Shown here: piece by piece, positions 12,310 through 55,735 of the stretch
Numbering within the stretch: position 1 is the first letter of the stretch
How the letters are laid out: every line of letters begins with the position of its first letter
Virus record (IMG/VR): IMGVR_UViG_3300010049_000010
Coordinates: 64,749-128,748 of that record
Strand: one strand, 5' to 3'
DNA from: a virus
Taxonomy: Duplodnaviria > Heunggongvirae > Uroviricota > Caudoviricetes
DNA length: 64,000 bases
Translations under genes and position numbers: made by a program
Notes under the pieces: generated by a model
What the model saw: the letters and a program-made list of their open reading frames with translations, nothing else
Told to the model about the DNA's origin: nothing
Database searches by the model: none

Positions 12310-12331
12310 GTTTTTGATCTCACTAAATAAT

Positions 12332-12967
12332 ATGCAAACATTTAGTGAGATACATAAACAACATCTTAAAGAATTATACATACCCATAGGTTGGAAAAAT
12401 CCTCAAATTATAAATAAAGACACTGGTGACGTTTTAGATATTAAAATAAATAAAAAATTAAATAATATTCCATCTAAGCCAAATTGGGATCATGCTAATC
12501 GTGGAGGTTTTACTGACGCATATCGTCTTGTAAAGGACGCGGCTATAGACACAACTTATGGGTTTGAGTCCTTTTTAATTTTAAGCAATGAAGAAGATGA
12601 TGAACCAATTGGAGTCATTTCATTTAAGACGAGTGATGAATTAAATGGCGCGATGAAGCTTATATTAGACGAAAATGTTGATTGGGAATATGACCCTATT
12701 GCTGATTGTATAGTTGAAGCATATTTAGTTGGATTTAAAGAAAATAATTTTACTTTAGTAAAAGACATGTTTAGACTATTAGATCAAATGATTGAAAAAT
12801 ATGAATATATTGGTTGGTCAGTGCATAATAACGCGCCTGTAAAAAAGATATATGATAAAGTTTACAAGTCTAAAAAATATGAGATGTTTACAAGCAATCC
12901 TAGTTGCGATAAATATTCAGGTGAAGCATATACACAATATGTAATATTAGGAGATGGAAATCTATAA
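12332..12967 (+). CDS. hypothetical protein
   Basis: The start was moved to the ATG abutted by cactaaataat (MQTFSEIHK…), because the track start at 12314 is a TTG inside that box. Confidence 0.45.
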   Translation: MQTFSEIHKQHLKELYIPIGWKNPQIINKDTGDVLDIKINKKLNNIPSKPNWDHANRGGFTDAYRLVKDAAIDTTYGFESFLILSNEEDDEPIGVISFKTSDELNGAMKLILDENVDWEYDPIADCIVEAYLVGFKENNFTLVKDMFRLLDQMIEKYEYIGWSVHNNAPVKKIYDKVYKSKKYEMFTSNPSCDKYSGEAYTQYVILGDGNL

Positions 12968-13683
12968 TGAAAAGTTTCTCAGAAATATTACAAGAACAAA
13001 AATATAATAATACGAATAGAATTTATTATCATGGATCTAGAGATCCAAATCTTGATCTAAAAAACTTTTTCAAAAGAGGAGAAAATAATGCTCAATGTTT
13101 TTATTTAACTCCTACATATGATTATGCAGTTCAGTATGCTCGAAACAAACAAGAGATGGCACTGGCTTATAGATCAGATGCAAGTGTCGCTTCTGGGGAT
13201 GATTCTGCTGTTTATCATTGTAAAATAATTAAACCTCTAAATATTTGTAATGCTAAATCTAAAACTGACTATGAATTTCTATTACATGAAATAGAAAAAT
13301 TATTGTTTTACATAAATGATAATGATAGAATTGAACGACCTGAGGGTTGGTTAAAAAGAGCATGCAAAAGAGCTGCAGATCAACTTGTTTTTAGATTTAA
13401 GGAAGAAGATTGGATTGAAGTTATTCATGATGAAAATAACAGAGAACATGAATTGTCTTTTCCAATGAGAGATAAAATAATTGACGCTATTAAAAAAGGT
13501 GGATATGATGGTTATTATAATTTTGAAACGGAAAAGGATGAGTGCGGTCCGTCAATTGGAATTTTTTCTGGAGACTTAACTTCAAAAATAAAAATATTAC
13601 GAAAACAAATAATTAGATATAAATTATACAGTGACCCAGACGAGGATCCTAGATACTTTCGCCAGTACGGAAATTGGCAATAA
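12967..13683 (+). CDS. hypothetical protein, weak member of the MxxFxxILxE N-terminal family
   Basis: N-terminus MKSFSEILQEQ resembles the MRTFKQILREA family. Confidence 0.5.
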   Translation: MKSFSEILQEQKYNNTNRIYYHGSRDPNLDLKNFFKRGENNAQCFYLTPTYDYAVQYARNKQEMALAYRSDASVASGDDSAVYHCKIIKPLNICNAKSKTDYEFLLHEIEKLLFYINDNDRIERPEGWLKRACKRAADQLVFRFKEEDWIEVIHDENNREHELSFPMRDKIIDAIKKGGYDGYYNFETEKDECGPSIGIFSGDLTSKIKILRKQIIRYKLYSDPDEDPRYFRQYGNWQ

Positions 13684-16982: not shown

Positions 16983-17891
16983 TTACAATTTGGCGTTAAA
17001 TTCATAAAATCCTCCAGGAATGTTCATAACAAATTCTAAATTAGTTCCGTTTTCAACATTCCATTTTTCTAATTCTTTTTTAAGCTTAAACTTATTTATA
17101 TTTATTTCTCTTCCGTCAGAATATGACTCGCCTTTAGTTAAATCTGATTCATTTAATTCTATTTCCATTCCAATTCCAAAATAAGGTTCGCGATGGATTT
17201 TAACTACTTCATTTAATAATGCGTACACTACATCTTTTTCTTTTTTGAGCACATACATATCAATTGAGTCATGAACATAATTAAACACTCTAGATCTAAA
17301 TCCCCATTTTTTGAGATGCATATTTATACAAGTAACGTCAGGCATTGCGTGAACGATTTCAGCAGTTTGAATAGATGTATTACTGGCTACATTTTTTAGA
17401 TTAGAAAACATTTTAGAATATAATTTTCTGTCAATGCCAATTAAATTACCTTGGGCATTTTTAGACATTAATCTTAATTCTGGTAAGTGTCGAACTGGAC
17501 CAACCCAAGTTCTAACGTAACCATGTTTCATCGCGAACTTCTGTTCTCTTTCTACTCGCTCTAATAATGATGGATAAGTTTTGAAAAATAATTCTCTTAG
17601 TTTATTTCCCAATATAACGTATTTTAATTCTTTTTCGCTTAATTTATTTGTGGGATTTAATTTAGCTTGATTATATGCTTGCCAAAGATTGAAACTATCA
17701 AAAGCAGTTTCACAATCATCTTCAGTGAAACCTGCAGCTTTCATTTGTCTGCCTAATGTCGGACCTTGACAAGCAAATAATGTTGCAAGACCTACAGTTT
17801 TACCATTAAATCTCATCTGTTTAAATGGACTAAATTTTTTCAATTTGAGAAAGTCTTCCATTGTCATATCACGTTTTGTTATCTTATACAT
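16983..17891 (-). CDS. family-A DNA polymerase, C-terminal fragment (fingers O-helix plus palm motif C)
   Basis: KQMRFNGKTVGLATLF matches motif B (RRxAKxxNFGxLYG), and YVHDSIDMYV matches motif C (VHDE). Confidence 0.75.
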   Translation of the reverse strand: MYKITKRDMTMEDFLKLKKFSPFKQMRFNGKTVGLATLFACQGPTLGRQMKAAGFTEDDCETAFDSFNLWQAYNQAKLNPTNKLSEKELKYVILGNKLRELFFKTYPSLLERVEREQKFAMKHGYVRTWVGPVRHLPELRLMSKNAQGNLIGIDRKLYSKMFSNLKNVASNTSIQTAEIVHAMPDVTCINMHLKKWGFRSRVFNYVHDSIDMYVLKKEKDVVYALLNEVVKIHREPYFGIGMEIELNESDLTKGESYSDGREININKFKLKKELEKWNVENGTNLEFVMNIPGGFYEFNAKL

Positions 17892-18144: not shown

Positions 18145-18479
18145 GATAACTCACTTAATCCTTTGAAATAATCTATATTTTTTTGCATACATTCCATTAC
18201 GTATTCTAAATCTTTAATTTTTTCTTCATATTTTGATTTCATTGCCTGTAATTCAATATCCTCACAAGAAATAAAATTATAACAAGGTCCTTCATTGGGA
18301 TATGAATCAGGAGTCGCGACATTACAAAATGAAATAGATTTAATATCTCCCATTTCAAAACTTATATCACAATCATGTAGTTTAATAAATGGAGTATTTG
18401 CGTTTGCTGGATTTCCAAAAAAGATATTGTAATGTTTAAGCATAATCAATCCACTCATCTGTTTGTTGGAATTCCGCAC
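18141..18479 (-). CDS. small protein located between the two polymerase fragments
   Basis: ORF only; I see no HNH, GIY-YIG or LAGLIDADG motif. Confidence 0.4.
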   Translation of the reverse strand: MRNSNKQMSGLIMLKHYNIFFGNPANANTPFIKLHDCDISFEMGDIKSISFCNVATPDSYPNEGPCYNFISCEDIELQAMKSKYEEKIKDLEYVMECMQKNIDYFKGLSELS

Positions 18480-20541
18480 CCTTAATTATAATTTCATCTT
18501 CCTCATCAATCATTCCGTATCTTTTAACTTTTATTTTTTGTGTTTCACCAAAGATAATTTTCTTTCCAGTTTCTTCACATTCAATTTCAATTACTTTAGT
18601 ATGAATTGGTTTAACAAAAGTTCCAACAGTTGTAGCTGAGTGAGCATCTTTATGTCCCTTTTCACCGTAGATTTCATAAGCAATTTGATCCACTCCGCCT
18701 TTGCTAATTCCATTATCAGCGAGTGCAAGACGAAATTGAAGTGAAGCAAAGTCGGCGGAAATTACAAGCCACTCGTCACTGTTATGTGATTCTGGTTCTC
18801 CAATTAAATCATCTTCTAATTGAGTAAGATTAGGCGGAGCTTCAAATAATTTCTTAATATGTTTAGCGATAGTTGAACCTGATGGTATTTGTTGAAAATT
18901 TGGATCATTCATTGCGTGGCGGAAACTTTCTGTACCGAATGTATTACAATTCGGATGTATTCTCCAAGTTCCATCTTCATGTTGCACCATCCATTTTCTC
19001 CAACCTTCAATAAATGTTCCTAATGCAACGTTATATGATCTAAAGTCTTTAAGTGTTTTAATTCCCGGAAGATTCAATAATTCATACTCATTAAGAACTG
19101 GGTCACCTGTTCCATATCCTCCGGCTTTTGATTCTGAGACTTTTGGCCATTTCATTTTCTCAAATAAAGCGCCTAATTCTTTTGGAGATTCAAATTTATA
19201 ATTTTCATCTACATTCCAAACTTTGGCTAATTCTTTTCTTAATTCTATTATTTTATCTCTAATTATTTTTTCAGACGCATCAAATTTTGCTGGACTAAAA
19301 TATATTCCTTCATATTCTACTTCAGTAACAGTGTTTGCGTTTGGTATCATTATTTCTTTATAGAAACGATTTATAGTCCATTCGGGTTGTTTCTCATTTG
19401 GGAATTTTTTATCTAACCATTTGCAGTGTTCATCGAGCGCTAACTGTAATCTCCAAGTCACTATTGGATCTAAACCGGCATATTTACAAAGCACCCCTCT
19501 CGGAATTTCGAGATAATTATTTACTTTTAATTTCTTTTTAATTTTATCTAATTCGTCATCATAGCCTATAAACTTTCCACAATAAAATACTGCCCCAGTT
19601 TTTAATCCCTTCGGCCTTCCTGAATTTATCGCATGAGATAATAAAGCCGTATCATCTGTTGGAAACCAACCTTTAACACCGTTCCACCAAATAAACTTCA
19701 TATCGAACTTTGCGTTAGATAAAGTGATTCGTCTAGCAGAAGTCAGTACTTGTTTTAATATTCTTTTATCTACAAGTTCCCAAGGTAATACGAAGCCGGT
19801 ATAACCATCATTGCTAAATTGAATATAACCTAATTTATCTCGTATAAAATGGAAACCGCCTGTTTCTGTATCAACTGCCAATAATTCAGAATTGACAAGT
19901 GATTTTAATATATCAGAAGCTTCTTCTTTAGAATTGGCCAAGACGATACTATAATCTCTATCATCAAGTGATTTAGTAGTCATATCATCATTTTGAATTA
20001 ATTTTAATCTTGAACGAAAAGTTTTAGTAAAGAAGTTAGTTGGATCATTTCCCAATTGAATCGGATATAAATCTTTAATGTTTGCGACTGGATAAATCCA
20101 TTTGTCGGGACCGCCAATAAATTCCGAACCGCAAAAATATCTTGGACTATTCAATTTATCATCAATAAATTCATAATAGTTTACGTCACCTGATTTGTTT
20201 AGAATACGAATTGTTGATCCGAAAGCGATTATACATTCGCATTCTGTTTCATCAAAACTTAGATATTGTCTCCAAGGACTTTCAATTGAGAGTAAAAATG
20301 TAGTTGAATCTTCTTTTGGATTTTTTACAGATATTGCAGATACAATATTATATGATTTAATACCTGCTTTAATTATATCTTTTTCTAAAGTGTCTAAATA
20401 TATTTTTGATAAAATATCATCAACCAGAAAGAGATAATATTTCTCCCCTGGTTGATATTTTTCGCGTAATAAGCAATCATGCTTTTCTAAATTTTGTTTA
20501 GGTTTTTCCGTTTGTCGAACGCCACCAAAGTTAAATGCCAT
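18436..20541 (-). CDS. family-A DNA polymerase, N-terminal fragment (3'-5' exonuclease plus palm motif A)
   Basis: Exonuclease motif I LLAVDTETGG, motif II SNAKFDMKFI and motif III KYAGLD. The pre-motif-A signature NTFGTESFRHAMNDPNFQQIP matches TGRLSSxxPNLQNIP, and motif A is VISADFASLQFRLAL. Confidence 0.8.
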   Translation of the reverse strand: MAFNFGGVRQTEKPKQNLEKHDCLLREKYQPGEKYYLFLVDDILSKIYLDTLEKDIIKAGIKSYNIVSAISVKNPKEDSTTFLLSIESPWRQYLSFDETECECIIAFGSTIRILNKSGDVNYYEFIDDKLNSPRYFCGSEFIGGPDKWIYPVANIKDLYPIQLGNDPTNFFTKTFRSRLKLIQNDDMTTKSLDDRDYSIVLANSKEEASDILKSLVNSELLAVDTETGGFHFIRDKLGYIQFSNDGYTGFVLPWELVDKRILKQVLTSARRITLSNAKFDMKFIWWNGVKGWFPTDDTALLSHAINSGRPKGLKTGAVFYCGKFIGYDDELDKIKKKLKVNNYLEIPRGVLCKYAGLDPIVTWRLQLALDEHCKWLDKKFPNEKQPEWTINRFYKEIMIPNANTVTEVEYEGIYFSPAKFDASEKIIRDKIIELRKELAKVWNVDENYKFESPKELGALFEKMKWPKVSESKAGGYGTGDPVLNEYELLNLPGIKTLKDFRSYNVALGTFIEGWRKWMVQHEDGTWRIHPNCNTFGTESFRHAMNDPNFQQIPSGSTIAKHIKKLFEAPPNLTQLEDDLIGEPESHNSDEWLVISADFASLQFRLALADNGISKGGVDQIAYEIYGEKGHKDAHSATTVGTFVKPIHTKVIEIECEETGKKIIFGETQKIKVKRYGMIDEEDEIIIKGAEFQQTDEWIDYA

Positions 20542-21490: not shown

Positions 21491-22129
21491 TTAACTGAAA
21501 ATATCGGGCAATTCTTCCCTGCATTTATCTCGTAACATATTAAATACTGCTTGAACATCGGGATGTGCTTTTTTACTGCATCGTAAATTAAACATATGAA
21601 ATAATTGACGCCAGTTACATTTCATATAAATATCACACTTAGTTGCAAGTGGTAAAACAGACGCAGCATTTTCAGCATTTAATTTATTATCTAATAATTC
21701 AAGATATCTTTGTTCTGATTCAATCATTGAATGATACCAAACACTATATTGTTTATTAAGTGAGCCATCTTCATTTTCTTGTTTAAGAACTGTCGGTTGC
21801 ACTACTGTAATTTCATTACCAAATTTATCTTTACTATAATTACAGTAACGTGTAGATTCAATTGCGAATGAACAATGACGATGTCGAGTAATGTCTCGCT
21901 TTGATCTAATATCAGTTGTGATTTTACAAATAAAATTACCAAATTCAATCATTGCACCATGGTCTTCTTTTAATAACATTTGATCAAATTTAATATAACT
22001 TGTATCAGTAATTTTATCACCTGATTTCCAACAATTGCGACCAGCTAATTCGATAAATTTTGCTTCCATTTCCCATTGTTCTTTAGTTGCAGGATAAATT
22101 ATTTCTGCACTATGTTGTACTATTTTCAT
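21491..22129 (-). CDS. thyX: flavin-dependent thymidylate synthase ThyX
   Basis: The ThyX signature RHRHCSFAIES (RHR-x7-S) and a length of 212 aa. Confidence 0.8.
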   Translation of the reverse strand: MKIVQHSAEIIYPATKEQWEMEAKFIELAGRNCWKSGDKITDTSYIKFDQMLLKEDHGAMIEFGNFICKITTDIRSKRDITRHRHCSFAIESTRYCNYSKDKFGNEITVVQPTVLKQENEDGSLNKQYSVWYHSMIESEQRYLELLDNKLNAENAASVLPLATKCDIYMKCNWRQLFHMFNLRCSKKAHPDVQAVFNMLRDKCREELPDIFS

Positions 22130-24409: not shown

Positions 24410-25585
24410 TTATGGAAGCATTTTAGCTACAACGGCTTTAATATCAGGATTTTCTATAATTATAGAAATACCATTAGGTTGATCCATTTTAGTAGACGAA
24501 TATTTAATAGTAAATGTTTCATATTTATTTAACATATTTTCTAATATCTTAAAGTGTTGCGTTGGAATAATGAACTCAAAATCATCTTTTCCATCTGTAT
24601 CAGCAGTAATCTCAACAGGTAATACAGTTCTAATTTCTACTTCCATATTATCATAGAATAATTCTATTTCTTTATTTTTCTTAAATCCTTTTGGGGTTCG
24701 GAAATTAACTTGAGAATATCTCCAAGATGTAGAATCAAATACGCCGTCAAATTCAGATATAACTTCAAAGAACTTTTTCGTATTTATTTCAGTTGTGATT
24801 AATTTTGTGTCTACTGGGCAAATTGCGTCTAGATCTTGTTCAGTAGGATAAGTCCAACTAAAAGTTTTCGGCACAAATATAATCTGTATTCCATAATTTG
24901 CAATATCAAAATAGAAAAATTTCTTATCAGATGATATCTTAAATGAATCAACGTTCTTAAATAACGATATAATATCTCTATCAATTAAGATTTCTTCTGT
25001 TTTTGGCACTGATTTTTCTTTTGCGCTAATAATACAAAGATTATCAGCCGTTTTAATATAATTTTTACCAATCATTATTTGATGATTAGTGTCTTGAAGC
25101 TTTGTAACGTTAGCTAAATCAGTCATTACGTCTTTTGACGTTAAGCTTATTTCAATAGGCGCTTTGAACTCAGGCAACGCTAATTTAGTTTTTATATTGT
25201 TTTGGATTTCTTTAAGAGCAGCTGCATCTAATGATGATGATATGAGAGCTTGATTTATTACTATTTTACTAGTCTTTGATTTAACTGTCATTTTATCATT
25301 TGCGATAGAGATGTTGATTTCATCAGACTTAGTTTTCTCTAAATAAGTAATAAACTTAGATAATTCTAAACTAAATGATAATTCATCTTTACTGTCAACA
25401 TCGAAAGCAGCTTCTATGTGGCCCGCTCCTGCCGTATCAGCAATTCCGTAAATCAGTAATTTATTCTTGTTAAGAATAAAAACGTGCTTTTCAGCGATTG
25501 GAGAAAAATTCTCCATTTTTTTAATGTAATCTGATAATACTTTTAACCGACTTATTTGGTCTTTTTTAATTATGAACTCTGTCAT
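24410..25585 (-). CDS. possible DnaN-like sliding clamp
   Basis: 391 aa. The N-terminal pattern (ISRLKVLSDYI … KLLIYGIADTAGAGHIEAAF) resembles a beta-clamp domain I. AGGAG Shine-Dalgarno site. Weak call. Confidence 0.35.
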   Translation of the reverse strand: MTEFIIKKDQISRLKVLSDYIKKMENFSPIAEKHVFILNKNKLLIYGIADTAGAGHIEAAFDVDSKDELSFSLELSKFITYLEKTKSDEINISIANDKMTVKSKTSKIVINQALISSSLDAAALKEIQNNIKTKLALPEFKAPIEISLTSKDVMTDLANVTKLQDTNHQIMIGKNYIKTADNLCIISAKEKSVPKTEEILIDRDIISLFKNVDSFKISSDKKFFYFDIANYGIQIIFVPKTFSWTYPTEQDLDAICPVDTKLITTEINTKKFFEVISEFDGVFDSTSWRYSQVNFRTPKGFKKNKEIELFYDNMEVEIRTVLPVEITADTDGKDDFEFIIPTQHFKILENMLNKYETFTIKYSSTKMDQPNGISIIIENPDIKAVVAKMLP

Positions 25586-36896: not shown

Positions 36897-38147
36897 TTAT
36901 GAATTTATGTTCAAACCTACTAACTTCCCAAGTTTAGTGTCTTCTTTAACAAGTTTTAATAAATAAGGGTTTGATTTAGCATCAAAAATATTTTTAGATA
37001 AATCAGTAATTGATCCATCTTTTACTGCCATATTATATAATTCAGTTCCTTTATAAATAATAACAGAACAATAAAAAACTCTATCAAAACCAATTTGTTG
37101 TATCTCTGGGATATTATATCTTACATCATTAATATTGTCCCATGGAAATCCAATTAGAACATTAGAACGAACTTCAAAATCATATTGTTGAAATAATTTA
37201 ATCACATATTCTAAATTATCTAATTTTGTTAGACCTAATTTTCCTACATTTTTCATTGAGTCAAAAGATACTGAATCAAGATTAAGACATACAACACAAA
37301 TTTTTGAATTATTTCTATCACATATTTCACTATATAATCTGACAAGATCTTCATCAACCATAGTAAAATCAATATCTAAAAAATATATTTTGCAATTTTT
37401 TTCTTTAAGAAATTGCATGATAGTCATCCAATATTCTTTTTCAGCCCAAGGCACATCATCTAATATAAGAAACGATTGAGCTCCATTATCTATGTAATAT
37501 TGTAAATCTGAAATTACTTTTTCTATAGATGGATATGACCTAATACAATTTCTTATTAAAGGATTTGGACAAAATACGCATGCATTTTCGCATCCTCTAG
37601 TAATCATAATAGGCATGTGTTTTTCTATTCTTTGAATAGGTTTTAATATATCTAAATCTTTTAAAACATAATTATAAACATTTTCTTTTCTCATTGTATA
37701 CCAATAAGGAGTATTTAGTAAATATTCTTTTTTGTTTTCAGCTTCAATAAGTTCTTTCATCGGAACTTCACCCTCACCCATACAAATACCATCAAAATAT
37801 TGAATAAGTTTTTCTTTTTCTATATTAGAATAATATCCGCCCGCTACAATAAGAGAATTTTTATATCTTTTCTTTATTTTAGTAATAAATTTAATAAGTC
37901 TTTTTTCATCATTTGGAATAAAAGAGAGAGATACTCCTACAATGTCTGGTTTCCAAAAAATGAATTTAGGAGTTCTATATATTATTTCAAATTTGTTAAT
38001 AATATCTGAACAAAATGATTTAATACATTCTAATCCAAAATGAAAAAATTTGATAGAGAAAAAAACTTTATGAAATGAATATGCGAGAAAATGAAATAAA
38101 TCAAATAAAGTAAATTTATTATAATATTTTATTAGCAATATATTCAT
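36897..38147 (-). CDS. B12-binding-domain radical SAM enzyme (paralog A)
   Basis: N-terminal Rossmann-like cobalamin-binding region (…SLIVAGGYY…GEGEVPMKELIE) and a CX3CX2C motif (GCENACVFC). Confidence 0.65.
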   Translation of the reverse strand: MNILLIKYYNKFTLFDLFHFLAYSFHKVFFSIKFFHFGLECIKSFCSDIINKFEIIYRTPKFIFWKPDIVGVSLSFIPNDEKRLIKFITKIKKRYKNSLIVAGGYYSNIEKEKLIQYFDGICMGEGEVPMKELIEAENKKEYLLNTPYWYTMRKENVYNYVLKDLDILKPIQRIEKHMPIMITRGCENACVFCPNPLIRNCIRSYPSIEKVISDLQYYIDNGAQSFLILDDVPWAEKEYWMTIMQFLKEKNCKIYFLDIDFTMVDEDLVRLYSEICDRNNSKICVVCLNLDSVSFDSMKNVGKLGLTKLDNLEYVIKLFQQYDFEVRSNVLIGFPWDNINDVRYNIPEIQQIGFDRVFYCSVIIYKGTELYNMAVKDGSITDLSKNIFDAKSNPYLLKLVKEDTKLGKLVGLNINS

Positions 38148-39360
38148 CTTTATATAACCTTTTAGTTTCTTTGTTTATTACAAGTTTCTTGTATTTAATT
38201 TTGGTCCAAGGAGATACTGCAATAAGTTGTTCATCATCAATTAAGTTTTGTTTTTTAGCTTCATTATAAAGTTGTGTTCCATAATATAATTCTAATTCAG
38301 CTAAATTATAACTATCAATATTATATTCTTTTACAAAATCATTTATTAGTGGGGAATAATCTATATTTTCTTCCCATGGAAATCCATAAATAAAAATAGT
38401 CTGTACTTTTAATTTATATCTTTGAATTAATCTTATTTTTTCTTTAAAAATTTCAAAAGTTCCAGGTTTTCCCGTTTTATTAAAAAATTCCTCTGTCGGA
38501 ATACAATCTATATTAAGAGCAATTGCTGATTTAGATTTATTACAACCAGCATAAGAGTTTAAAATATTTTCAGTAATATAAATAAAATTATTATGTAATA
38601 CATATGCGGTAGCTTTATTTTCAGTTATAAAATCTAAAGTTTCACACCACAATTTTTCATTTTTAAAAGGACTATCATCTATAAAGAAAAAACCTTTAGC
38701 TCCTTTTGATATATAATATTTTATATCTTCTTTTACTTTTTCTATTGATTTCTCTCTATATGGCGGCGAATTATCAAACTTACAATAAATGCATTTTTCT
38801 GGACAATTTTTAGTAATAGTTAAAACTACTTTTTTACCAGTAAATTCTACTGGTTCTAATAAGTCTAAATCTTTCATAATATATGAACTAAAATTAGTTT
38901 TATTTTTAGTGTACCAATATGGTGTTTGTTCTAAGTAAGCTTTTTTATCAGTAGCTTCTAACAATTCTTTAAATGGTATTTCTCCTTCTCCTAAACATAT
39001 AGCATCTACATAATCTATAAATTTTTCTTTCATCACTTCAGCATACATTCCACCTAAAATAATAAGAGAATTAGGAGATCGTTTTCTTATTTTTTGAAAT
39101 ATTTTTATATTTCTATTATGATCATTATGAAGAATAACCATTGATATTGCAATTATATCGTAATTTTTCTTAAACTCAAAAAACCACGGCATATAATCAA
39201 ATATCTTCATAAAAGCAGTTGTATGTTTTTTACAATAAGATTTTATAGTAAGAAGTCCGTGATTCTTAAAAAAATTGTCAAAATTTATAAGTTTGAACAC
39301 TATCTTAAAAAATAAAGAAAGACCATTTTTATATAAGTTTCCTATCATCAATACTTTCAT
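38119..39360 (-). CDS. B12-binding-domain radical SAM enzyme (paralog B)
   Basis: Same architecture as paralog A: …SLIILGGMY…GEGEIPFKELLE plus CX3CX2C (NCPEKCIYC). Confidence 0.65.
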   Translation of the reverse strand: MKVLMIGNLYKNGLSLFFKIVFKLINFDNFFKNHGLLTIKSYCKKHTTAFMKIFDYMPWFFEFKKNYDIIAISMVILHNDHNRNIKIFQKIRKRSPNSLIILGGMYAEVMKEKFIDYVDAICLGEGEIPFKELLEATDKKAYLEQTPYWYTKNKTNFSSYIMKDLDLLEPVEFTGKKVVLTITKNCPEKCIYCKFDNSPPYREKSIEKVKEDIKYYISKGAKGFFFIDDSPFKNEKLWCETLDFITENKATAYVLHNNFIYITENILNSYAGCNKSKSAIALNIDCIPTEEFFNKTGKPGTFEIFKEKIRLIQRYKLKVQTIFIYGFPWEENIDYSPLINDFVKEYNIDSYNLAELELYYGTQLYNEAKKQNLIDDEQLIAVSPWTKIKYKKLVINKETKRLYKDEYIANKIL

Positions 39361-39493
39361 ATAATCTATATTAACTTTATATTTTATAAATTTTAGTATG
39401 AAATTTCTTTCCTTTTTAAAGATAAATTTAGAAATGCAAGAATTTGCCGACTAAACGGCTTTTTACAATAGATAATTCATTAAACTAATTATT

Positions 39494-42400
39494 ATGTATA
39501 CTTTGCGGGAAAGATATGAACAAATCAAGTTACGAGAAGATACTCACAGTTTGCATGTAGAAGACAGTCTTCTTAAGGGAAAAGATTATATAGAGAGAAT
39601 GCTAGGTTTCTTTAATCATGCTTTAGAGATAGTAGAGGGAAGTGATGATAGTAGTCAACCTAGACCTACAATTAAGTATGATGGAGCGCCTGCAATCGTA
39701 ATGTGGTCACAAAGAGAAGACATCAATGAAAGTTATGGTATTAGCACAAAGTCACTTTTTAACAATAATCCTAAATATTATGGTTCTGACGAGGAAATAG
39801 ACGCCGACAAAGATCGGGCTGATAGTCTTAAAATTAAGATGAAAATGGCTCTTAAATTAGCAGCTGAAAAGATTATTCCAGAGGGTGAGATTTGGCAAGG
39901 CGATTTGCTTTGGACAGCAGGTGATATTAAGAGCATAACTGATGATGGAATAAATTACGTTATTGCAAAACCAAATACTTTAGGATATGCAGCTCCAGCC
40001 GATTCAGATGTCGGTGAGAGAATGAAGAATAGCGATATTGGCATTGTATTTCATACGAGATATAAAGGTCCACTTGATGAGGTTAAACAGTCTAATGATG
40101 TGGATATTTCCGAGTGCAAAAATATACCAGATTGGGCATTTATATTTGACGCGAAGCTTCCCGATTTAAGGGGGAAAGTAACTTTTGATTCTAATGCGTC
40201 TCGTGGACTTAAGAATAGTATTGGAGAATTAAGAAGAAAATGCGCTGATTTAATGGACCACGAAAATTATGATGATTTAGTAAGCAATGAAGATTTTATC
40301 AATTTTTATATGATGACTCTTCAAAACCACAAAATAGACAAAGGTGAAAAAATTGATCCTGAAACTTTTAAGGAAGAACTTCATGATTGGATTAATGTAA
40401 AAATGCACAAAAAATATAATGACTTGAGCAAGTTAAAAACGAAAGCTGGCAGAGATAAAAAGCGAGACACTATTTTATCTACTAGCAGAGAATTACATTA
40501 TATTTGCAGAGAAAATGGAGACTTAATTCACAGTATAGCAGACGCATTATATTGGGCGACTTATATTAAGGGAATTTTGATAGAACAATTTAACAAAGCT
40601 CAAGAATGGATAACCAAGGTTGAAATGAGATCCGGAGGATGGAAGAACACCTCAGGCGAAGGATTCATGATTAGCGATAATGATGGAAAATTTGTTAAGT
40701 TTGTAGACAGATCTGCATTCAGTTATTTTAATAGGTCATCTGAAGTTGTAAAGGGCTTTGAAAGAATAACGGAAAGCGAAGAAAATAAGTGGAATAGGGA
40801 TGAACGCCTTGGCAAAGTTGGTCTTTATGATGATGATGATTGGCATGAAGCAATAGAAGATGATGATGAAGATAAAAATACTGAGGTTGATGAAAATGAA
40901 CAAGTTATTGAAATTGAAACAGAATTATCAGTAGAAGAAATTGAAAATATATGTCTCCGTGTTTTATCTGAAAGTTTAAGAGAAGCTTTTGAGATGGTGG
41001 ATACAGATAGCATTGAAAAAAGATTAAAAGCGATTAAGAGTGATAAATCTGTTACTTGGGTTTGGATAGAAAAAATAAATAAAAAAGCTAAAATTCATTA
41101 CTCAAGAGCAGAAAAAAAACCATCTGGAGGAAATTGGATAGAAGTTAAAAGAAAAGTTGAAATGTCTAATTCATCTAAAAAACCAATTGATAATTCAGAA
41201 AGATTTTTAATTAATAAAAATAATGATCAAAATAAAAATTTATGTTTAATTATAAAAAATATTTTAATTCCGAACATAGAAGACTGGTCTATTTGGAAAA
41301 ATATTGGTTTACAAATAAGTAAATCAGATTCGAGTTCATCTATTTTAGTTAATGTTTGGAAGGACGATGACCCTTTAGGTGGAAATGAAATAGAAGAACT
41401 CTCACTTGGTTTAAAAGGAGTGGATGGTGAAGATTGGTCTTGTAGTGATAATAAAAATAAAAGATTAAGTTTAACTTATAAAAAATTTACAATAAATTTT
41501 AGAAATACAGGTGGAGGAAAAGCAACTGTTATTTATTTTGATAAAAATGGAAACTTAAAATCAATTGAAAAATCATCAAATAAATTTAGTGATTCTGTTA
41601 TTACATCTATACAAGAATCATTAACAGGATTATTTTTAACAATGTCTTTTAATAATGATAAATCAAATTATGCTAAATATGAAAAAATATTATTAACGAT
41701 AGATAATCCTATTTTTGTTAAAAACTTAGTTCAAAAGGATTCAAGCACTTTTAATGTTTCAGGTTTTTCTAATGTTTTAAATTCTTGGAGAGAATCAATA
41801 AAAAATAGTTCTTCTGAAATAATTAAAAGAAAAATTCTAGGTTCATATAAAAAATTATCAAGTGGGCAATGGAAAATAATTCATCCAAGTCTTTATAAAA
41901 CTGACGATTCATATCTTAATTCTATTATTGATTTTAATCCTTATTTAAGTAGACATCTTTTTTCTAATTTTAATTATAAAAATATAATGAGTAGAGATAC
42001 TGCAAATCCTGCAGATATATTTATTATTAATACTGGAACATCATCTTATGATAAATCATTATCTTATGATAGTTTAATTGAAGATTTAAATAATTTAAGA
42101 AAAGATCAATTATATAAAAAAGGTGGAGAATTAAAAAGTTTAACAAGTGTTACCGCATCCACTGAAAATATAAGAGATGCTTTTGTTGCTACACTTAATA
42201 AATATTTTGATGCCGGAATTCTTATTGGAATAAGTTTAAAGAAAACTACTAAAAATGCTAATGTAATTAAATCAGCAACTCATAATTCTTTAAGTGAAAA
42301 TTTAAATAAAGATGATTTATCTTGTTTTGTTTTTAATGATAACAAAAATGATACAATAAAAAGTTTTTCTTTCTCAGGACCACCATATTTAAATAAACAA

Positions 42401-43009
42401 AATAAAAATAATGGAAAAAGTGCTTATTTAATTATAAATGTAGATGGAAATCATCTACATTTAGGAAAAAATATTGCAGAATTAAAAATGGATATTAGAA
42501 TTCCAAGTAGCGGTAATATAAATTCTCCTCCTGTTTCTGAGATAATAATGAATCAATCAGAAGCTAGATTTGGAAAATCTACTGAAGCAGTTAGACTTGT
42601 TTTAAATAATTTTAGAAAAAGATATAAATCAAATATTGCTTCATATATTACAAAATTTTTAAATCAAGAAAATGTTACTTTACGTGAATCTTTAAGATTA
42701 TTTGAAGAAGTTTATAATATATCAAATCGTTTATATGAAGATGAAGATGAAGATGATACTCCAGATAATATTAATTTAAAAGGAAGAATTGATGAAAATA
42801 AAGTGAAAGCTTTAAAAGCAAATTTTTATTTAAAATGTTTAATTCAAGAAATAGGTGGAAGTGTTTCTAATAATAATATAAATTCTTTAATAAAAGAGAA
42901 CTTAACTAAAGTTTTTGCACGTGGCATGAAATATAAGATATATTCATTAAGAACAAAATTATTTGAAAGTTTTAATAATGGTGTAGTAAATTATTTTAAA
43001 ATATTTTAG
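39494..43009 (+). CDS. giant protein (1171 aa): N-terminal RNA/DNA-ligase-like nucleotidyltransferase domain, an acidic linker, and about 600 aa of N/K/S-rich low complexity
   Basis: Motif I TIKYDGAP (KxDG), motif IV GEGFMI and motif V KFVKFVDR. The C-terminal half is compositionally extreme. Confidence 0.45.
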   Translation: MYTLRERYEQIKLREDTHSLHVEDSLLKGKDYIERMLGFFNHALEIVEGSDDSSQPRPTIKYDGAPAIVMWSQREDINESYGISTKSLFNNNPKYYGSDEEIDADKDRADSLKIKMKMALKLAAEKIIPEGEIWQGDLLWTAGDIKSITDDGINYVIAKPNTLGYAAPADSDVGERMKNSDIGIVFHTRYKGPLDEVKQSNDVDISECKNIPDWAFIFDAKLPDLRGKVTFDSNASRGLKNSIGELRRKCADLMDHENYDDLVSNEDFINFYMMTLQNHKIDKGEKIDPETFKEELHDWINVKMHKKYNDLSKLKTKAGRDKKRDTILSTSRELHYICRENGDLIHSIADALYWATYIKGILIEQFNKAQEWITKVEMRSGGWKNTSGEGFMISDNDGKFVKFVDRSAFSYFNRSSEVVKGFERITESEENKWNRDERLGKVGLYDDDDWHEAIEDDDEDKNTEVDENEQVIEIETELSVEEIENICLRVLSESLREAFEMVDTDSIEKRLKAIKSDKSVTWVWIEKINKKAKIHYSRAEKKPSGGNWIEVKRKVEMSNSSKKPIDNSERFLINKNNDQNKNLCLIIKNILIPNIEDWSIWKNIGLQISKSDSSSSILVNVWKDDDPLGGNEIEELSLGLKGVDGEDWSCSDNKNKRLSLTYKKFTINFRNTGGGKATVIYFDKNGNLKSIEKSSNKFSDSVITSIQESLTGLFLTMSFNNDKSNYAKYEKILLTIDNPIFVKNLVQKDSSTFNVSGFSNVLNSWRESIKNSSSEIIKRKILGSYKKLSSGQWKIIHPSLYKTDDSYLNSIIDFNPYLSRHLFSNFNYKNIMSRDTANPADIFIINTGTSSYDKSLSYDSLIEDLNNLRKDQLYKKGGELKSLTSVTASTENIRDAFVATLNKYFDAGILIGISLKKTTKNANVIKSATHNSLSENLNKDDLSCFVFNDNKNDTIKSFSFSGPPYLNKQNKNNGKSAYLIINVDGNHLHLGKNIAELKMDIRIPSSGNINSPPVSEIIMNQSEARFGKSTEAVRLVLNNFRKRYKSNIASYITKFLNQENVTLRESLRLFEEVYNISNRLYEDEDEDDTPDNINLKGRIDENKVKALKANFYLKCLIQEIGGSVSNNNINSLIKENLTKVFARGMKYKIYSLRTKLFESFNNGVVNYFKIF

Positions 43010-47427: not shown

Positions 47428-47814
47428 ATGGCAGGACGTAGAAGTTCAGACGACCCAAAATGGGCAGAAACTAAAAAGATAGTCGATAAACGAGATCGAC
47501 GTCAATGCCAGTTTGAGAAATGTTTATCTCTCAAAGAATCATATCAATTAAAAATAGACGGCCCAACTGTATTAGACCGCGCACATATTTTCGCAGCATC
47601 AGCAAGACCAGATCAAATATATAATCCAAAAAATGTAATTACGCTCAGAAGATTTATTCACCAGAGAATGGATGGATATAAAAATCCAATTACGGGTGAC
47701 CCAATAGATTATAATGAAACTATGTTTTGGTGGCATAGAATATTAAAAAAATTTGTTGATGATTATGAGCCAGATGTTGATTATGAGGAACTTCTAAAAG
47801 CCGAGATTAGATAA
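47428..47814 (+). CDS. possible HNH-family endonuclease
   Basis: CQFEKC … RAHIFAAS … NVITLRRFIHQ gives an H-N-H spacing. Weak call. Confidence 0.35.
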   Translation: MAGRRSSDDPKWAETKKIVDKRDRRQCQFEKCLSLKESYQLKIDGPTVLDRAHIFAASARPDQIYNPKNVITLRRFIHQRMDGYKNPITGDPIDYNETMFWWHRILKKFVDDYEPDVDYEELLKAEIR

Positions 47815-51111: not shown

Positions 51112-51717
51112 ATGAGTGATAAAAAATTAGATGCTTCAAAATTTCCTTGGTTGCAAAGTGATGGAAAAAAGGGAGCTGAAAAACCGCCTATGGATAATGT
51201 TAGTAAACTTGAAGAAATCGGACAAACGAAATATGTTGTCCCAAATGGGCTTATAACTTTTGGTTGGAAAGCAAGAAGTTATCCAGATCATAAAGGTATT
51301 GATATTATTCCCAAAAGAACTGGGTCCGCACCTACGGGAACCCCTATTTATTCTTTATTAGCTGGGTTTGTCGTTACAAGTGTTGATATATTTCCAAATA
51401 ATCAAAGTATTTATAATGATAATCCTAAAGATATGAGTAAAGCATTTGGAAATTATGTTGTTGTTTTAAGTAGTGGTGGTATATATGCTTATTATTGTCA
51501 CTTATATTCAGTAGAAGTAGAAAAATATACTAGAATAAAACGAGGTGAACTAATTGGAACTATGGGTGATACTGGAAATAGCGCCGGCGATCATCTTCAT
51601 TTTGAATTAAGACGTAGGAGTATGTCGCCAGCAAGCGCATTTGATCCGACTCCTTATTTTGGTTATGAAGTATGTAATAATCCACCACAAAGAAGAACTG
51701 GTAGACAGTCAAGATAG
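51112..51717 (+). CDS. M23-family metallopeptidase (lysostaphin-like; virion-associated or endolysin)
   Basis: HKGIDI (HxxxD) and GDTGNSAGDHLHFELR (HxH). Confidence 0.75.
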   Translation: MSDKKLDASKFPWLQSDGKKGAEKPPMDNVSKLEEIGQTKYVVPNGLITFGWKARSYPDHKGIDIIPKRTGSAPTGTPIYSLLAGFVVTSVDIFPNNQSIYNDNPKDMSKAFGNYVVVLSSGGIYAYYCHLYSVEVEKYTRIKRGELIGTMGDTGNSAGDHLHFELRRRSMSPASAFDPTPYFGYEVCNNPPQRRTGRQSR

Positions 51718-51726
51718 GAGTAAAAT

Positions 51727-52950
51727 ATGGCAATAGTAAAAATGGAAGAAAGTAAATTAAGAACCAGACAAGGAAATAATGTGGCCATGATAAATACATC
51801 TCCAACTCCCGATGGATTAACTAATTTAGTAACCCAAGATAGCACAATTGAAAATTTTTCAACTGTTCCCGCAAATTTAGATGATAATACAGGGGTGCAT
51901 TTTTATCCTCATATAAATAAATTTAAAGTTGTTGAACTTGCTGTTAGTTCTTTGCATGTACAATATCCATTACAAATAACGAGTCCTCAATGGGGAAATT
52001 GGCGGAATAGTCACCCTGACCAAAAAGATTGGGCTGGTGGAACAACTAATGTAGATGATAGAATTTTATTATTTCCAACTAATAAAACATTTGCATTTAA
52101 TTATTCTCATGAATATGGTAATGCTTGGGAAAAATTATCAAGTACTGGTATGTTAAGTAAAGTTCAACAGGGTCTTGAAGCAATGAGAAGTTTAGCTATG
52201 ATGGCAGGCGCATCAGGTGTTAGTACTGGTGGAAAAATGATTTCTCGCTATACCAATACTCCAGTTTGGAATAAATCTACTCCAGTTAAATACACTTCAA
52301 ATTTAGAATTTGAATTTCATTTTGGTCAAGCGGGTATTTACTCAGGAGAGGAAGAAGTTGTGAAACCTATACTTAGATTAATTCATTTATTTTCTCCATT
52401 ATTAGTGGGTAATTATGCAAGAGGTCCTGTTCCAACGGCGCCAACTTATTTGGCCGCCATGCTTTCTTTAATAGGAGATAAAGATAGGGCCCAAATGGGA
52501 GACTTAGATACAGCAAAAAATGATGCCTCAAAAATAAGCACTGATGCCCCAGTGGATGATAAAGGCAACGCCGTTGCAGAATCAGATAAAGATAGAAACA
52601 AAAGACTTTCAGGAATGGCTACTGCTATGGGTGGTATTGTTAATAAGTTAACTCAGTTAGAAGAAATGCTTATGAAAAAAATGGATGATTCTATTGGTAG
52701 AGCATTAAATGGATGGCGTGCTAGCGATGGTTGGCAAGGTGGATCTAGAGGTCTTTGTATTAGAATGGGAAGAATGTCATTAGGACCTTATGTAGTAAAA
52801 GAAGTTAATTGGGATTTTGATTTTACTCAAACAGATGAGTTTGGTTTTCCATATAAAGGTAAAATTACATTTGGTGGATTAGAATCTATCTTTGTTGCTA
52901 ACCCAAGTCAAATACAACATCATTTTGGTGGAAATAATACTAGAAGTTAA
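51727..52950 (+). CDS. hypothetical structural (tail/baseplate?) protein
   Basis: Its position after the tape-measure-like and M23 genes; GGAG Shine-Dalgarno site. Confidence 0.4.
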   Translation: MAIVKMEESKLRTRQGNNVAMINTSPTPDGLTNLVTQDSTIENFSTVPANLDDNTGVHFYPHINKFKVVELAVSSLHVQYPLQITSPQWGNWRNSHPDQKDWAGGTTNVDDRILLFPTNKTFAFNYSHEYGNAWEKLSSTGMLSKVQQGLEAMRSLAMMAGASGVSTGGKMISRYTNTPVWNKSTPVKYTSNLEFEFHFGQAGIYSGEEEVVKPILRLIHLFSPLLVGNYARGPVPTAPTYLAAMLSLIGDKDRAQMGDLDTAKNDASKISTDAPVDDKGNAVAESDKDRNKRLSGMATAMGGIVNKLTQLEEMLMKKMDDSIGRALNGWRASDGWQGGSRGLCIRMGRMSLGPYVVKEVNWDFDFTQTDEFGFPYKGKITFGGLESIFVANPSQIQHHFGGNNTRS

Positions 52951-53951
52951 ATCAATTTTATTATATCTCTCATTCTTTGTTGATAATCATTTCCTCTAAT
53001 TAGAGTCAACCGGTAACACATATTTAATTGCATTCTATATTGTTCAATGAGATAAGTTTCGTCCTCTTTTCTGGTAGACTCTAGAAATCTATATCCATCG
53101 TTAACCCAATCAACCTCAGAAGAAAGAATGAATATCTGATCATAATCTTGTAATTTAATTATTTCTTTAATGAGATTTGAATCAGCGCCTTTATGATATT
53201 TTTCTAAATAATATCTAGTGACTACTGCATCACTGTCAACAAATAAATATTTATTAGAATGCTCTAAAGCATCTTGTTGAGCAATCCAATGTTTCATAGC
53301 GATATTATCAAACTGTTTGACTGTTAATTGATTAGCATGTTTCTCACAATAATCTCTGCCAATTTCGTGCACATAATTAGTGTTAAAATATTTAGCCAGA
53401 TTTCTTGCCATTGTAGATTTACCTACGCTTTCAACTCCAGTAAATAAAATCTTTTTAGTAAAATGAGGTCTTGTTATTGGCAAAATATATTCCCAATACT
53501 TAAATGGGTCTTGTCGTATTTCAGTAGCAGATATATTTACGAAACTTCTGTCTCGATCTAATATAACGTGTTTCGCGTTTGGATAATTAACTTTAAAGAA
53601 TTGGTCATAAGCTGGTTCAGAACTAAACACGTGAGTCAGCCCCGGAATCATTTTACGAACTTGAGCCGTGCCTTTAGTCCAATCATATTCCATCTCATCA
53701 TATTCTATTTCAAGTAAGTCAACTTCCTTGCCCAATTTTCTCAATTCAGATATAGAATGTCCAATCCAAGATTTTCGTAATTCAGGAGACATTTCTTTAA
53801 TACCTTCTTTTTCACAAAGTTGTTTGTCAAATTCTTTATTATGAAATAAAATTATGTAGAGCTTATCAACATGAGTGAGCGCTTCCATTGCTGCATAATG
53901 GTGACCACTGTGAAATGGAAGAAATTTTCCGCCATATTGTCCAATTTTCAT
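52947..53951 (-). CDS. nadR: NadR-like bifunctional NMN adenylyltransferase / ribosylnicotinamide kinase
   Basis: GGKFLPFHSGHH matches HxGH and ISATEIRQ matches ISSTxIR. The C-terminal P-loop is GVESVGKST. Confidence 0.75.
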   Translation of the reverse strand: MKIGQYGGKFLPFHSGHHYAAMEALTHVDKLYIILFHNKEFDKQLCEKEGIKEMSPELRKSWIGHSISELRKLGKEVDLLEIEYDEMEYDWTKGTAQVRKMIPGLTHVFSSEPAYDQFFKVNYPNAKHVILDRDRSFVNISATEIRQDPFKYWEYILPITRPHFTKKILFTGVESVGKSTMARNLAKYFNTNYVHEIGRDYCEKHANQLTVKQFDNIAMKHWIAQQDALEHSNKYLFVDSDAVVTRYYLEKYHKGADSNLIKEIIKLQDYDQIFILSSEVDWVNDGYRFLESTRKEDETYLIEQYRMQLNMCYRLTLIRGNDYQQRMRDIIKLI

Positions 53952-54826: not shown

Positions 54827-55735
54827 TTACCAGGAATTAGTGACAAGCCCGTCATTATAAATTACTTTGTAATTTTTGCGGCCTTTTAAGTAGTCCCTCA
54901 CATTCCTAATAATTAGTTTAAGTTTTTCAGAATTCGTCATAGTGTAGTTCACATCATCGACCATCGCACAGCCCCGTTTAACTAGGATCTTAATTCCTTT
55001 GAACATCTTTTTGGATAAGTCTTTTGGCCATTTATTTCCTTTGAGAAAAGTACTGCATCCTGATGATATTGGTGGACCTAGTTTAAGATCAGGCCAAATA
55101 TCTTTTATTCCAACGTGTAAATCGGGTTTGTGCGTTAATTCGTTTATCTTGATATATTTTACACCCCAGTGAGCAAGTTCCATTAATTCCATTTTAACTT
55201 GATGTTCAAATTCTATATGTTTTTTAACAAGACAAAAAGACACTCGAAACTTATCAGCATAACCGTCTTTAATAAGTTCTCTAACGAATTGCTGTCTCCA
55301 AGTATTTGGCTTACTCATTCCCATTATATCCATAGCAGTATTTGGATAAGCTGAACCAATAGATATATTGCATCCATCTAAACGGTTTAATAATTCTTTG
55401 AATCTAAATTTCTGTAATTCGTGATTTAAGTTTGGTGGTAGAGCTGTAAACATTGTTATTTCTTTAACGTAAGGTCTAATGAAATCTACTAACATTTTTA
55501 CTTTGTCAGGATAGAGCATTGGCTCTCCACCTTCAATTACGACAGATTGCCAACCAGTTTTAATGATATTATCTGCTATTTTTTCAACATCAATATTTTC
55601 TTTACATCCTTTCTTTGTTTTTTTAGCTAAACAATGAATGCATGCGTATGGACATTTTCTAGTTAAAGCTATATTTATGTATGGTGCACTTCCATCGCAA
55701 TTATTTCTAAAAGTAATATTATCCTCCGAATATAG
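54827..55735 (-). CDS. radical SAM enzyme whose CX3CX2C motif lies upstream of the first canonical start codon
   Basis: In the same frame, upstream of the track start (MLYPD at 55519), I read …TRKCPYACIHCLAKK…VVIEGGEP. The frame is open back to 55735 with no ATG, GTG or TTG. GGAGGA lies upstream of an in-frame ATT. Confidence 0.55.
   Translation of the reverse strand, partial: LYSEDNITFRNNCDGSAPYINIALTRKCPYACIHCLAKKTKKGCKENIDVEKIADNIIKTGWQSVVIEGGEPMLYPDKVKMLVDFIRPYVKEITMFTALPPNLNHELQKFRFKELLNRLDGCNISIGSAYPNTAMDIMGMSKPNTWRQQFVRELIKDGYADKFRVSFCLVKKHIEFEHQVKMELMELAHWGVKYIKINELTHKPDLHVGIKDIWPDLKLGPPISSGCSTFLKGNKWPKDLSKKMFKGIKILVKRGCAMVDDVNYTMTNSEKLKLIIRNVRDYLKGRKNYKVIYNDGLVTNSW

Follow-up and report, generated by a model that had tools for sequence, protein, structure and literature searches.

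The 64,000-nucleotide stretch of DNA analysed here (the window; positions 64,749 to 128,748 of the IMG/VR virus record IMGVR_UViG_3300010049_000010) carries two adjacent genes, RS1 and RS2. Judging from sequence motifs and structural models, their products are very probably cobalamin-binding enzymes of class B within the radical S-adenosylmethionine (SAM) superfamily. Enzymes of class B, which usually methylate unreactive carbon atoms, carry out alkylations that rank among the most difficult in biology, and to our knowledge none has an established role in a virus. A literature search found no report of class-B radical SAM enzymes in phages. With reasonable confidence, the finding is a well-founded enzyme-class annotation, and the sequence so far gives no hint of a new mechanism.

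Domain architecture and cofactor motifs of RS1 and RS2

RS1 (38119-39360, minus strand) is the upstream gene, encoding a predicted class-B radical SAM protein of 413 amino acids at the head of a leftward transcription unit, and RS2 (36897-38147, minus strand) encodes a second such protein of 416 amino acids. Two adjacent open reading frames (ORFs) of these lengths had been described in a first-pass annotation made from the letters of the sequence; both were recovered, and their products are paralogs, with 36% identity over 396 columns in BLASTP (E 7e-71). The two ORFs overlap by 29 nt. Because the N-terminus of RS2 (MNILLI...) agrees with the N-termini of its homologs, we regard this overlap as genuine. 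RS1 diverges from a gene for a DUF6267 protein across an AT-rich intergenic region of 133 bp (39361-39493), which is the presumed promoter region of the leftward unit. A promoter and terminator scan did no better than on shuffled sequences; sigma-70-like matches were not commoner than in these, and therefore no specific promoter is claimed.

Each protein contains a single CX3CX2C motif, located from the translation at residues 186-193 in both: CPEKCIYC in RS1 (38782-38805, minus strand) and CENACVFC in RS2 (37569-37592, minus strand), as the first-pass annotation had quoted them. The three cysteines are invariant in 45 homologs. The Pfam model Radical_SAM (PF04055) matches RS1 with 47.1 bits, above the cut-off of 29.5, and RS2 with 27.6 bits, just below it; Pfam also reports Radical_SAM_N2 for the pair.

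AlphaFold2 (AF2) models were confident for both RS1 (predicted local distance difference test, pLDDT, 84.4; predicted template modelling score, pTM, 0.85) and RS2 (pLDDT 89.5, pTM 0.89), and the secondary-structure elements come in the same order in the two. In each, an N-terminal Rossmann domain of five strands precedes a partial barrel of the radical SAM type, with the Rossmann strands at approximately residues 2-7, 50-55, 69-74, 99-103 and 120-122, and a helix in RS2 at 127-135. Fold searches were performed with the RS1 model. In Foldseek against the PDB, the top match was the methyl-coenzyme M reductase glutamine C-methyltransferase MgmA/QCMT (PDB 9ccb; E 5e-17, template modelling (TM) score 0.70), followed by MtaB, CysS, MiaB, OxsB, TsrM, AprD4, TokK and RimO. 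The N-terminal Rossmann-like domain that had been proposed from the sequence is therefore seen in the models of both proteins as well as in the fold searches. The modelled fold firmly places RS1 and RS2 in the group that joins a Rossmann domain to a radical SAM core, a group that mixes true cobalamin enzymes with the cobalamin-free AprD4 and ArsL and with methylthiotransferases. The fold alone is insufficient to assign a cofactor, because AprD4 (a radical SAM diol dehydratase, PDB 6fd2) and ArsL bind no cobalamin (PMC12931638).

The cofactor motifs carry the assignment further. In solved class-B enzymes, base-off cobalamin is held by a G/A-x-S/T-x-X motif in the beta3-alpha3 loop, a Gly-Gly pair on beta4 and a Gly-Glu pair at the start of alpha5 (PMC9204698). 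The corresponding segment spans residues 68-127 in both proteins. It lies at 38980-39159 (minus strand) in RS1, where it was placed by translation, profile alignment to TokK and CysS, and AF2 secondary structure, and at 37767-37946 (minus strand) in RS2, where it was placed by translation, clade invariance and AF2 secondary structure. RS1 has A71-I-S73 on beta3, G103-G104 ending beta4 and G124-E125-G126-E127 leading into alpha5; RS2 has G71-V-S73, G103-G104 and G124-E125-G126-E127. The motifs fall on the predicted elements in both models, and every cofactor motif is kept by both RS1 and RS2. S73, G103, G104 and G124-E127 are invariant in nine sequences, namely the five members of the phage clade described below and four bacterial relatives fused to a tetratricopeptide repeat (TPR) domain. 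When a profile of the family is aligned to the cobalamin domains of TokK (E 6e-17) and CysS (E 3e-13), the match is in register throughout the N-domain, whereas the alignment of the profile to AprD4, MgmA, RimO and MiaB is limited to the radical SAM core. TokK and CysS themselves, the iterative C-methylases of carbapenem and cystobactamid (PDB 7kdx and 9n1b), are only about 15% identical to the phage proteins and longer (620-680 amino acids), with large C-terminal domains that the phage proteins lack; the lower-face Tyr/Trp of TokK is also not conserved, the equivalent position being V, S, K or I in the phage family.

The curated family libraries speak less clearly, and their results weigh against the assignment. 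The Pfam B12-binding model (PF02310) gives 31.2 bits for RS2 and 28.3 bits for RS1 against a gathering threshold of 32.1, a near miss that spans only profile positions 50-120, in the second half of the profile; the threshold itself is no biochemical criterion. The NCBIfam matches all lie far under their curated cut-offs and are spread over B12-radical SAM families, ArsL and MiaB/RimO. Taken with the motifs, the profile alignments and the fold searches, all of which back the class-B architecture (a cobalamin-type Rossmann domain and a radical SAM core) put forward in the first-pass annotation, we consider this architecture likely.

Two alternatives within the same fold group were weighed against it. 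RS1 and RS2 could be cobalamin-independent radical SAM enzymes in which the Rossmann domain is vestigial, as in AprD4 and ArsL, and could catalyse a dehydration, a 3-amino-3-carboxypropyl transfer or another non-methylating reaction. We consider this decidedly improbable: all three cobalamin motifs are invariant, and the N-domain can be aligned with those of TokK and CysS, whereas the N-domains of AprD4 and ArsL do not align with the family profile. The ArsL model (NF040542), whose cut-off is 450 bits, scores 55 and 42, and its RCCLKC motif is absent; the AprD4 model (NF033070) scores 26 bits where 500 are required. Alternatively, the proteins could be methylthiotransferases of the MiaB/RimO type acting on tRNA or a ribosomal protein, a reading favoured by the strong fold matches to MiaB, MtaB and RimO, by the match of TIGR00089 to RS2 (E 1e-9), and by the RNA-repair-type genes elsewhere in the window. 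However, the three N-terminal cysteines of the auxiliary cluster are missing (the N-domain keeps only C122, and C43 is replaced by alanine in the clade member P0023), and no TRAM domain was matched in the pair. On these two grounds the methylthiotransferase reading was rejected as effectively refuted. TIGR00089, which has a cut-off of 251 bits, scores 38 and 23, and the family profile reaches MiaB and RimO only through the radical SAM core, so that we find the reading hardly credible.

By analogy with characterised members of the class, we incline slightly towards regarding RS1 and RS2 as functional cobalamin-dependent class-B enzymes that transfer a methyl or other alkyl group. C-methylation, the commonest reaction in class B, is what we infer for both; class-B enzymes are not all methylases, OxsB and BchE being examples that are not, and this counts against so specific an assignment.

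Relatives of the pair and its genomic setting

An exhaustive HMMER search of 1.84 billion representative sequences returned five clade proteins at 560-627 bits, which are RS1 (P0001), RS2 (P0059), P0002, P0003 and P0023. The scores then fall to 209 bits (P0060) and 174 bits, within a total of 33,491 superfamily members at E<=1e-3. The next-best matches include giant proteins of 2,000-6,450 amino acids with three to five B12-radical-SAM-like stretches (P0061, P0067, P0070, P0112, P0143 and others). In a word-indexed search, the only close relatives were P0002, P0003 and P0023, at 30-35% identity. There was no close relative in about 185,000 bacterial and archaeal species genomes (the best was a partial match at 28% identity), no match for RS1 or RS2 in PHROGs, and no DNA similarity to the window in 50,697 GenBank phage records; among GenBank phage proteins, RS2 had no match and RS1 one weak, unannotated match. 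A metagenome scan recovered the same few contigs again, from a handful of JGI and ENA samples. RS1, RS2 and their relatives thus appear from sequence to be a distinct orphan clade, phage-specific, within a known enzyme class, and the clade seems to be restricted to a small number of very large phage genomes. The viral structure database BFVD contains about five uncharacterised 'uncultured Caudovirales' proteins (e.g., A0A6J7XS70 and A0A6J5LGQ4) that have the two-domain fold of RS1 (Foldseek E 1e-13 to 8e-10, TM score 0.57-0.62). They are unrelated to it in sequence (11-16% identity), 490-650 amino acids long, and lie outside the clade. The enzyme class thus has precedents in viral metagenomes.

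The nearest cellular relatives are the TPR-fused bacterial B12-radical SAM proteins P0004-P0007 (E 1e-30 to 1e-33 against the family profile), which are uncharacterised. They share with the phage clade DAICLGEGEIPF and the linker motif (S/T)PY(W/F), but are only 22-26% identical to it and have about 130 extra residues, including the TPR domain. On the bacterial contigs L008, L135 and L136, genes of this TPR-fused type (550-554 amino acids) are invariably followed by a gene for a 501-amino-acid aldo-keto reductase, which on L008 also has ferredoxin-like matches, and are preceded by FkbM-type methyltransferases and a family-2 (GT2) glycosyltransferase, or by another radical SAM gene. Together these genes form a conserved uncharacterised cassette.

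The first-pass annotation had called RS1 and RS2 a tandem duplication. They are indeed a paralogous pair; a recent duplication, on the other hand, does not agree with the identity values. RS2 is 35-40% and RS1 31-37% identical to the single-copy homologs (38-40% and 33-37%, respectively, to P0002 and P0003). The identity of RS1 to RS2, at 36%, is no higher than the 31-40% to the single-copy homologs, and the duplication is therefore ancient, or RS1 came from a related phage. RS1 is the more diverged paralog: it departs from the other members at 18 positions on which they all agree, among them the RG to KN change before the first cluster cysteine. RS2, which is nearer to the single-copy homologs of the related phages, has 11 changes at otherwise conserved positions, mostly conservative. 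At the other loci, a single copy of the gene was seen within the flanks covered (10 kb or less to either side).

With about 26-39% GC, the window is AT-rich; it is tightly packed with ORFs that are mostly orphan, yet it has a recognisable phage-type gene set. It contains no tRNA genes, and neither capsid nor terminase genes were found in it, so that the window alone does not prove a phage identity. RS1 was found on the ENA contig ERZ27264051 k141_7313039 (328,413 bp). A related contig of 329 kb (L001) is listed as a viral genome in IMG/VR, and 'jumbo phage' is therefore well supported. Downstream of the pair are three small orphan ORFs and then the gene for an ATP-dependent DNA ligase (34694-36064, minus strand). 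The pair heads the strand that also bears this ligase, a PD-(D/E)XK nuclease (28858-29745, minus strand), the thymidylate synthase ThyX (21491-22129, minus strand; Pfam Thy1, 119 bits) and a family-A DNA polymerase (PolA), which agrees with the earlier statement that the phage encodes ThyX, DNA ligase and nuclease genes. Two minus-strand ORFs (18436-20541 and 16983-17891), about 540 bp apart, share the polymerase between them; the downstream one matches the C-terminal portion of DNA_pol_A (profile positions 239-369 of 381).

The divergent neighbour of RS1 (39494-43009, plus strand) encodes a 1171-amino-acid protein with a DUF6267 domain in its N-terminal 400 residues (39494-40750, plus strand; 179 bits) and a KYDG motif resembling motif I of nucleotidyltransferases (ligase or capping). 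Matches to DUF6267 in GenBank phages are hypothetical proteins, 27-29% identical, mostly from T4-like cyanophages and also from a few other large phages, among them Methylophilales phage Melnitz and Stenotrophomonas phage DLP_6.

At the other loci of the family the gene has other company. On L001, the homolog has a 1099-amino-acid coiled-coil-like ORF on one side and RecA on the other, and genes for primase, thymidine kinase and dUTPase are near; on L005, it comes after an ORF of more than 1767 amino acids; on L009, L013 and L014, P0023 is the third of three successive radical SAM genes. An inference from conserved neighbours was rejected, the large adjoining ORFs of three loci (1171, 1099 and 1767 amino acids) being mutually unrelated. 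When ORFs of L001, L005, L009, L013, L014 and L020 were compared with the window by all-against-all BLAST, only the radical SAM gene was common; the sole other match, between the giant ORF of L005 and 63019-63951 of the window, was marginal (E 6e-5). The P0023 run on L009 (614-3729; also on L013 and L014) consists of consecutive overlapping genes: an NrdG-like activase-type gene (306 amino acids), a 288-amino-acid protein with a Cys-rich C-terminus and weak SPASM-maturase-like or viperin-like matches, and the class-B enzyme. The run, on a short phage-like contig, may be a cassette for radical maturation in several steps.

More can be learned from the nearest outlier, P0060, which is 27% identical to RS2 and keeps the motifs ICFGEGE and SPSWYT. 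Its contig (L137, 26.7 kb) is distantly related to the window phage, with PolA 40% and ThyX 35% identical. A 392-amino-acid orphan on L137 is 32% identical to a 391-amino-acid protein of the window (24410-25585), which had no Pfam, PHROG or PDB match. The gene order on L137 is the 392-amino-acid gene, directly followed by the radical SAM gene (P0060), then an HNH-like gene, ThyX, a 173-amino-acid gene and PolA. In the window, this set lies on one strand and keeps its order, with about 13 kb of extra genes interposed. From this shared strand and order we infer that the radical SAM gene is an old component of the replication and nucleotide-metabolism module of the lineage.

Candidate reactions and substrates

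By analogy with TokK, CysS and MgmA/QCMT, a first SAM would methylate cob(I)alamin to give methylcobalamin, and reductive cleavage of a second SAM at the [4Fe-4S] cluster would yield a 5'-deoxyadenosyl radical. An unactivated C-H of the substrate would lose its hydrogen to this radical, and the resulting substrate radical would then receive the methyl group from methylcobalamin. For two co-transcribed, translationally overlapping paralogs, the simplest arrangement would be action at two sites, or in two successive steps, on one substrate; enzymes are paired in this way in bottromycin, polytheonamide and thienamycin biosynthesis. The pair would be expressed along with the replication and nucleotide-metabolism module of the phage, which would make phage DNA or a nucleotide precursor the best guess for the substrate.

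DNA or a nucleotide accordingly ranks first among the substrate classes, though as a weakly founded choice that we hold to be less likely than not. The gene lies in the replication module in three phage lineages (those of the window, L001 and L137), and the module includes the thymidylate-metabolism genes ThyX, thymidine kinase and dUTPase. The sole functional precedent that we found for a phage-encoded radical SAM enzyme acting on DNA is gp53 of phage M6, an N-alpha-GlyT isomerase in thymidine hypermodification (PMC8989533).

A number of points weigh against this choice. M6 gp53 belongs to a different family from RS1 and RS2, being like spore photoproduct lyase (SPL) and having no cobalamin domain, and its partners, the cluster of 5-HMUDK, aGPT-Pplase and a pyridoxal phosphate (PLP) enzyme, were not found in the window. 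More generally, neither known DNA-hypermodification genes nor genes for cobalamin uptake or salvage were found in the 64 kb, where many ORFs are matchless and ORFs of fewer than 120 amino acids were mostly unscanned. No nucleic-acid-binding domain was matched in RS1 or RS2. The isoelectric points (pI) of the family range inconsistently from 5.2 to 8.9, and charge was dropped as an uninformative hint of nucleic-acid binding. The immediate neighbours differ at every family locus, and membership in a replication module is generic for early and middle genes of phages, which makes it a weak argument. The closest structural neighbour, MgmA/QCMT, acts on protein, and the closest cellular relatives stand in glycan-like clusters. 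The first-pass annotation had proposed base hypermodification of DNA or RNA, or action on a peptide, and the evidence decides neither for nor against these; DNA modification by RS1 and RS2 is plausible but unsupported. The full proposal, that the pair performs cobalamin-dependent radical C-alkylation of phage DNA or a deoxynucleotide precursor as part of the replication module of a lineage of jumbo phages, presumably of termite-gut type, is quite unlikely; we know of no DNA modification with such a chemistry.

Protein substrates are the first alternative to DNA or nucleotides. RS1 and RS2 would in that case be C-methylases of a phage or host protein or of a ribosomal peptide, as MgmA/QCMT and Mmp10 are for methyl-coenzyme M reductase and PoyB and PoyC for proteusins. 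MgmA/QCMT, the best structural match, is a protein glutamine C-methylase that is comparably minimal in size (its structure has 417 residues), but the likeness is at the level of the fold only, with 18% identity, and the QCMT model TIGR04014 gives 34.8 bits for RS1 and 25.3 for RS2 against a cut-off of 360. MgmA/QCMT is moreover an archaeal enzyme of McrA, and no such substrate is present here. The weakly SPASM-type, peptide-maturase-like gene in the run of three radical SAM genes that P0023 closes would also fit a peptide substrate; that arrangement is found at the P0023 loci only. Finally, eight small ORFs about 3 kb downstream of the pair, on the same strand, share a C-terminal tail that could in principle be a recognition element, but no ORFs with this tail were found in the flanks of the other family loci. 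The family libraries matched no recognition element for peptides made on ribosomes and modified after translation (RiPPs), and no precursor was identified. On balance, we consider protein or peptide methylation fairly unlikely.

The eight tail-bearing ORFs are an observation in their own right. They are mostly small, back-to-back ORFs with unrelated bodies on the minus strand (30694-33955), at 30694-31140, 31137-31448, 32540-33061, 32883-33101, 33098-33316, 33313-33498, 33498-33677 and 33677-33955, with stop codons that overlap the next start. Each ends in an acidic tail of the pattern (L/F/I/M)-F-D-(D/E)-(D/E/N)-E-(L/I) plus zero to two residues (e.g., ...SELFDEEELE and ...TELFDDDEL). The tail occurs in 8 of 216 ORFs and in none of 200 shuffles; its codons vary synonymously, so that a conserved peptide rather than a DNA repeat is indicated. 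Its appearance is that of a shared tail by which the proteins would dock to, or be recognised by, one hub protein, as with acidic tails of the single-stranded DNA-binding protein (SSB) or gp2.5 type. That a modifying enzyme would recognise it as a common element is speculative, and the ORFs were set aside as substrates of RS1 and RS2, other than as a speculative lead, since they do not co-occur with the radical SAM gene in the other sampled loci.

A third class of substrate would be a small molecule or glycan, such as a sugar, a lipid or a cofactor, with the pair tailoring, for example, a nucleotide-sugar or a polysaccharide of the host surface. Sugars, lipids or tetrapyrroles are the substrates of many class-B enzymes that have been characterised (PMC12931638), and the relatives P0004-P0007 always have the aldo-keto reductase behind them and stand beside genes for FkbM-type methyltransferases, a family-2 glycosyltransferase or a further radical SAM protein. 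These relatives are distant from the phage proteins, however, in both identity and domain content, and neither a glycosyltransferase nor a sugar-nucleotide gene was found next to the phage genes. We regard tailoring of this kind as improbable.

Other genes of the window and implications

Several further genes of the window stand apart from the pair. A bacterial extracellular solute-binding protein (11251-12309, plus strand; SBP_bac_8/1/6, E 1e-17), unusual cargo for a phage, is followed by the orphan ORFs 12314-12967 and 12967-13683, and an M23 peptidase is encoded at 51112-51717. A NadR-like AAA_28 NTPase (52947-53951, minus strand) and a PnuC-type nicotinamide mononucleotide transporter (55719-56381, minus strand) suggest a phage-encoded salvage of nicotinamide adenine dinucleotide (NAD+). 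The minus-strand set at 57229-60628, consisting of an HD-domain protein (57229-57810), an AAA_33 kinase (59358-59891) and an RNA ligase (59891-60628; Pfam RNA_ligase, 92 bits), resembles the polynucleotide kinase and RNA ligase tRNA-repair systems of large phages. An HNH/NUMOD3-like ORF (29738-30382) and an HNH_2-like ORF (47428-47814) suggest homing-endonuclease activity in the genome.

A pair of class-B radical SAM genes fixed in the replication module of a jumbo phage is unusual. Its stable embedding in that module, together with the retention of two ancient, intact paralogs, suggests a selected, phage-specific function. A phage with such a function would depend on the cobalamin of its host. 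The identity of the substrate would either add a new chemical type to the modifications of viral nucleic acids, or show that phages carry out radical post-translational or metabolite tailoring.

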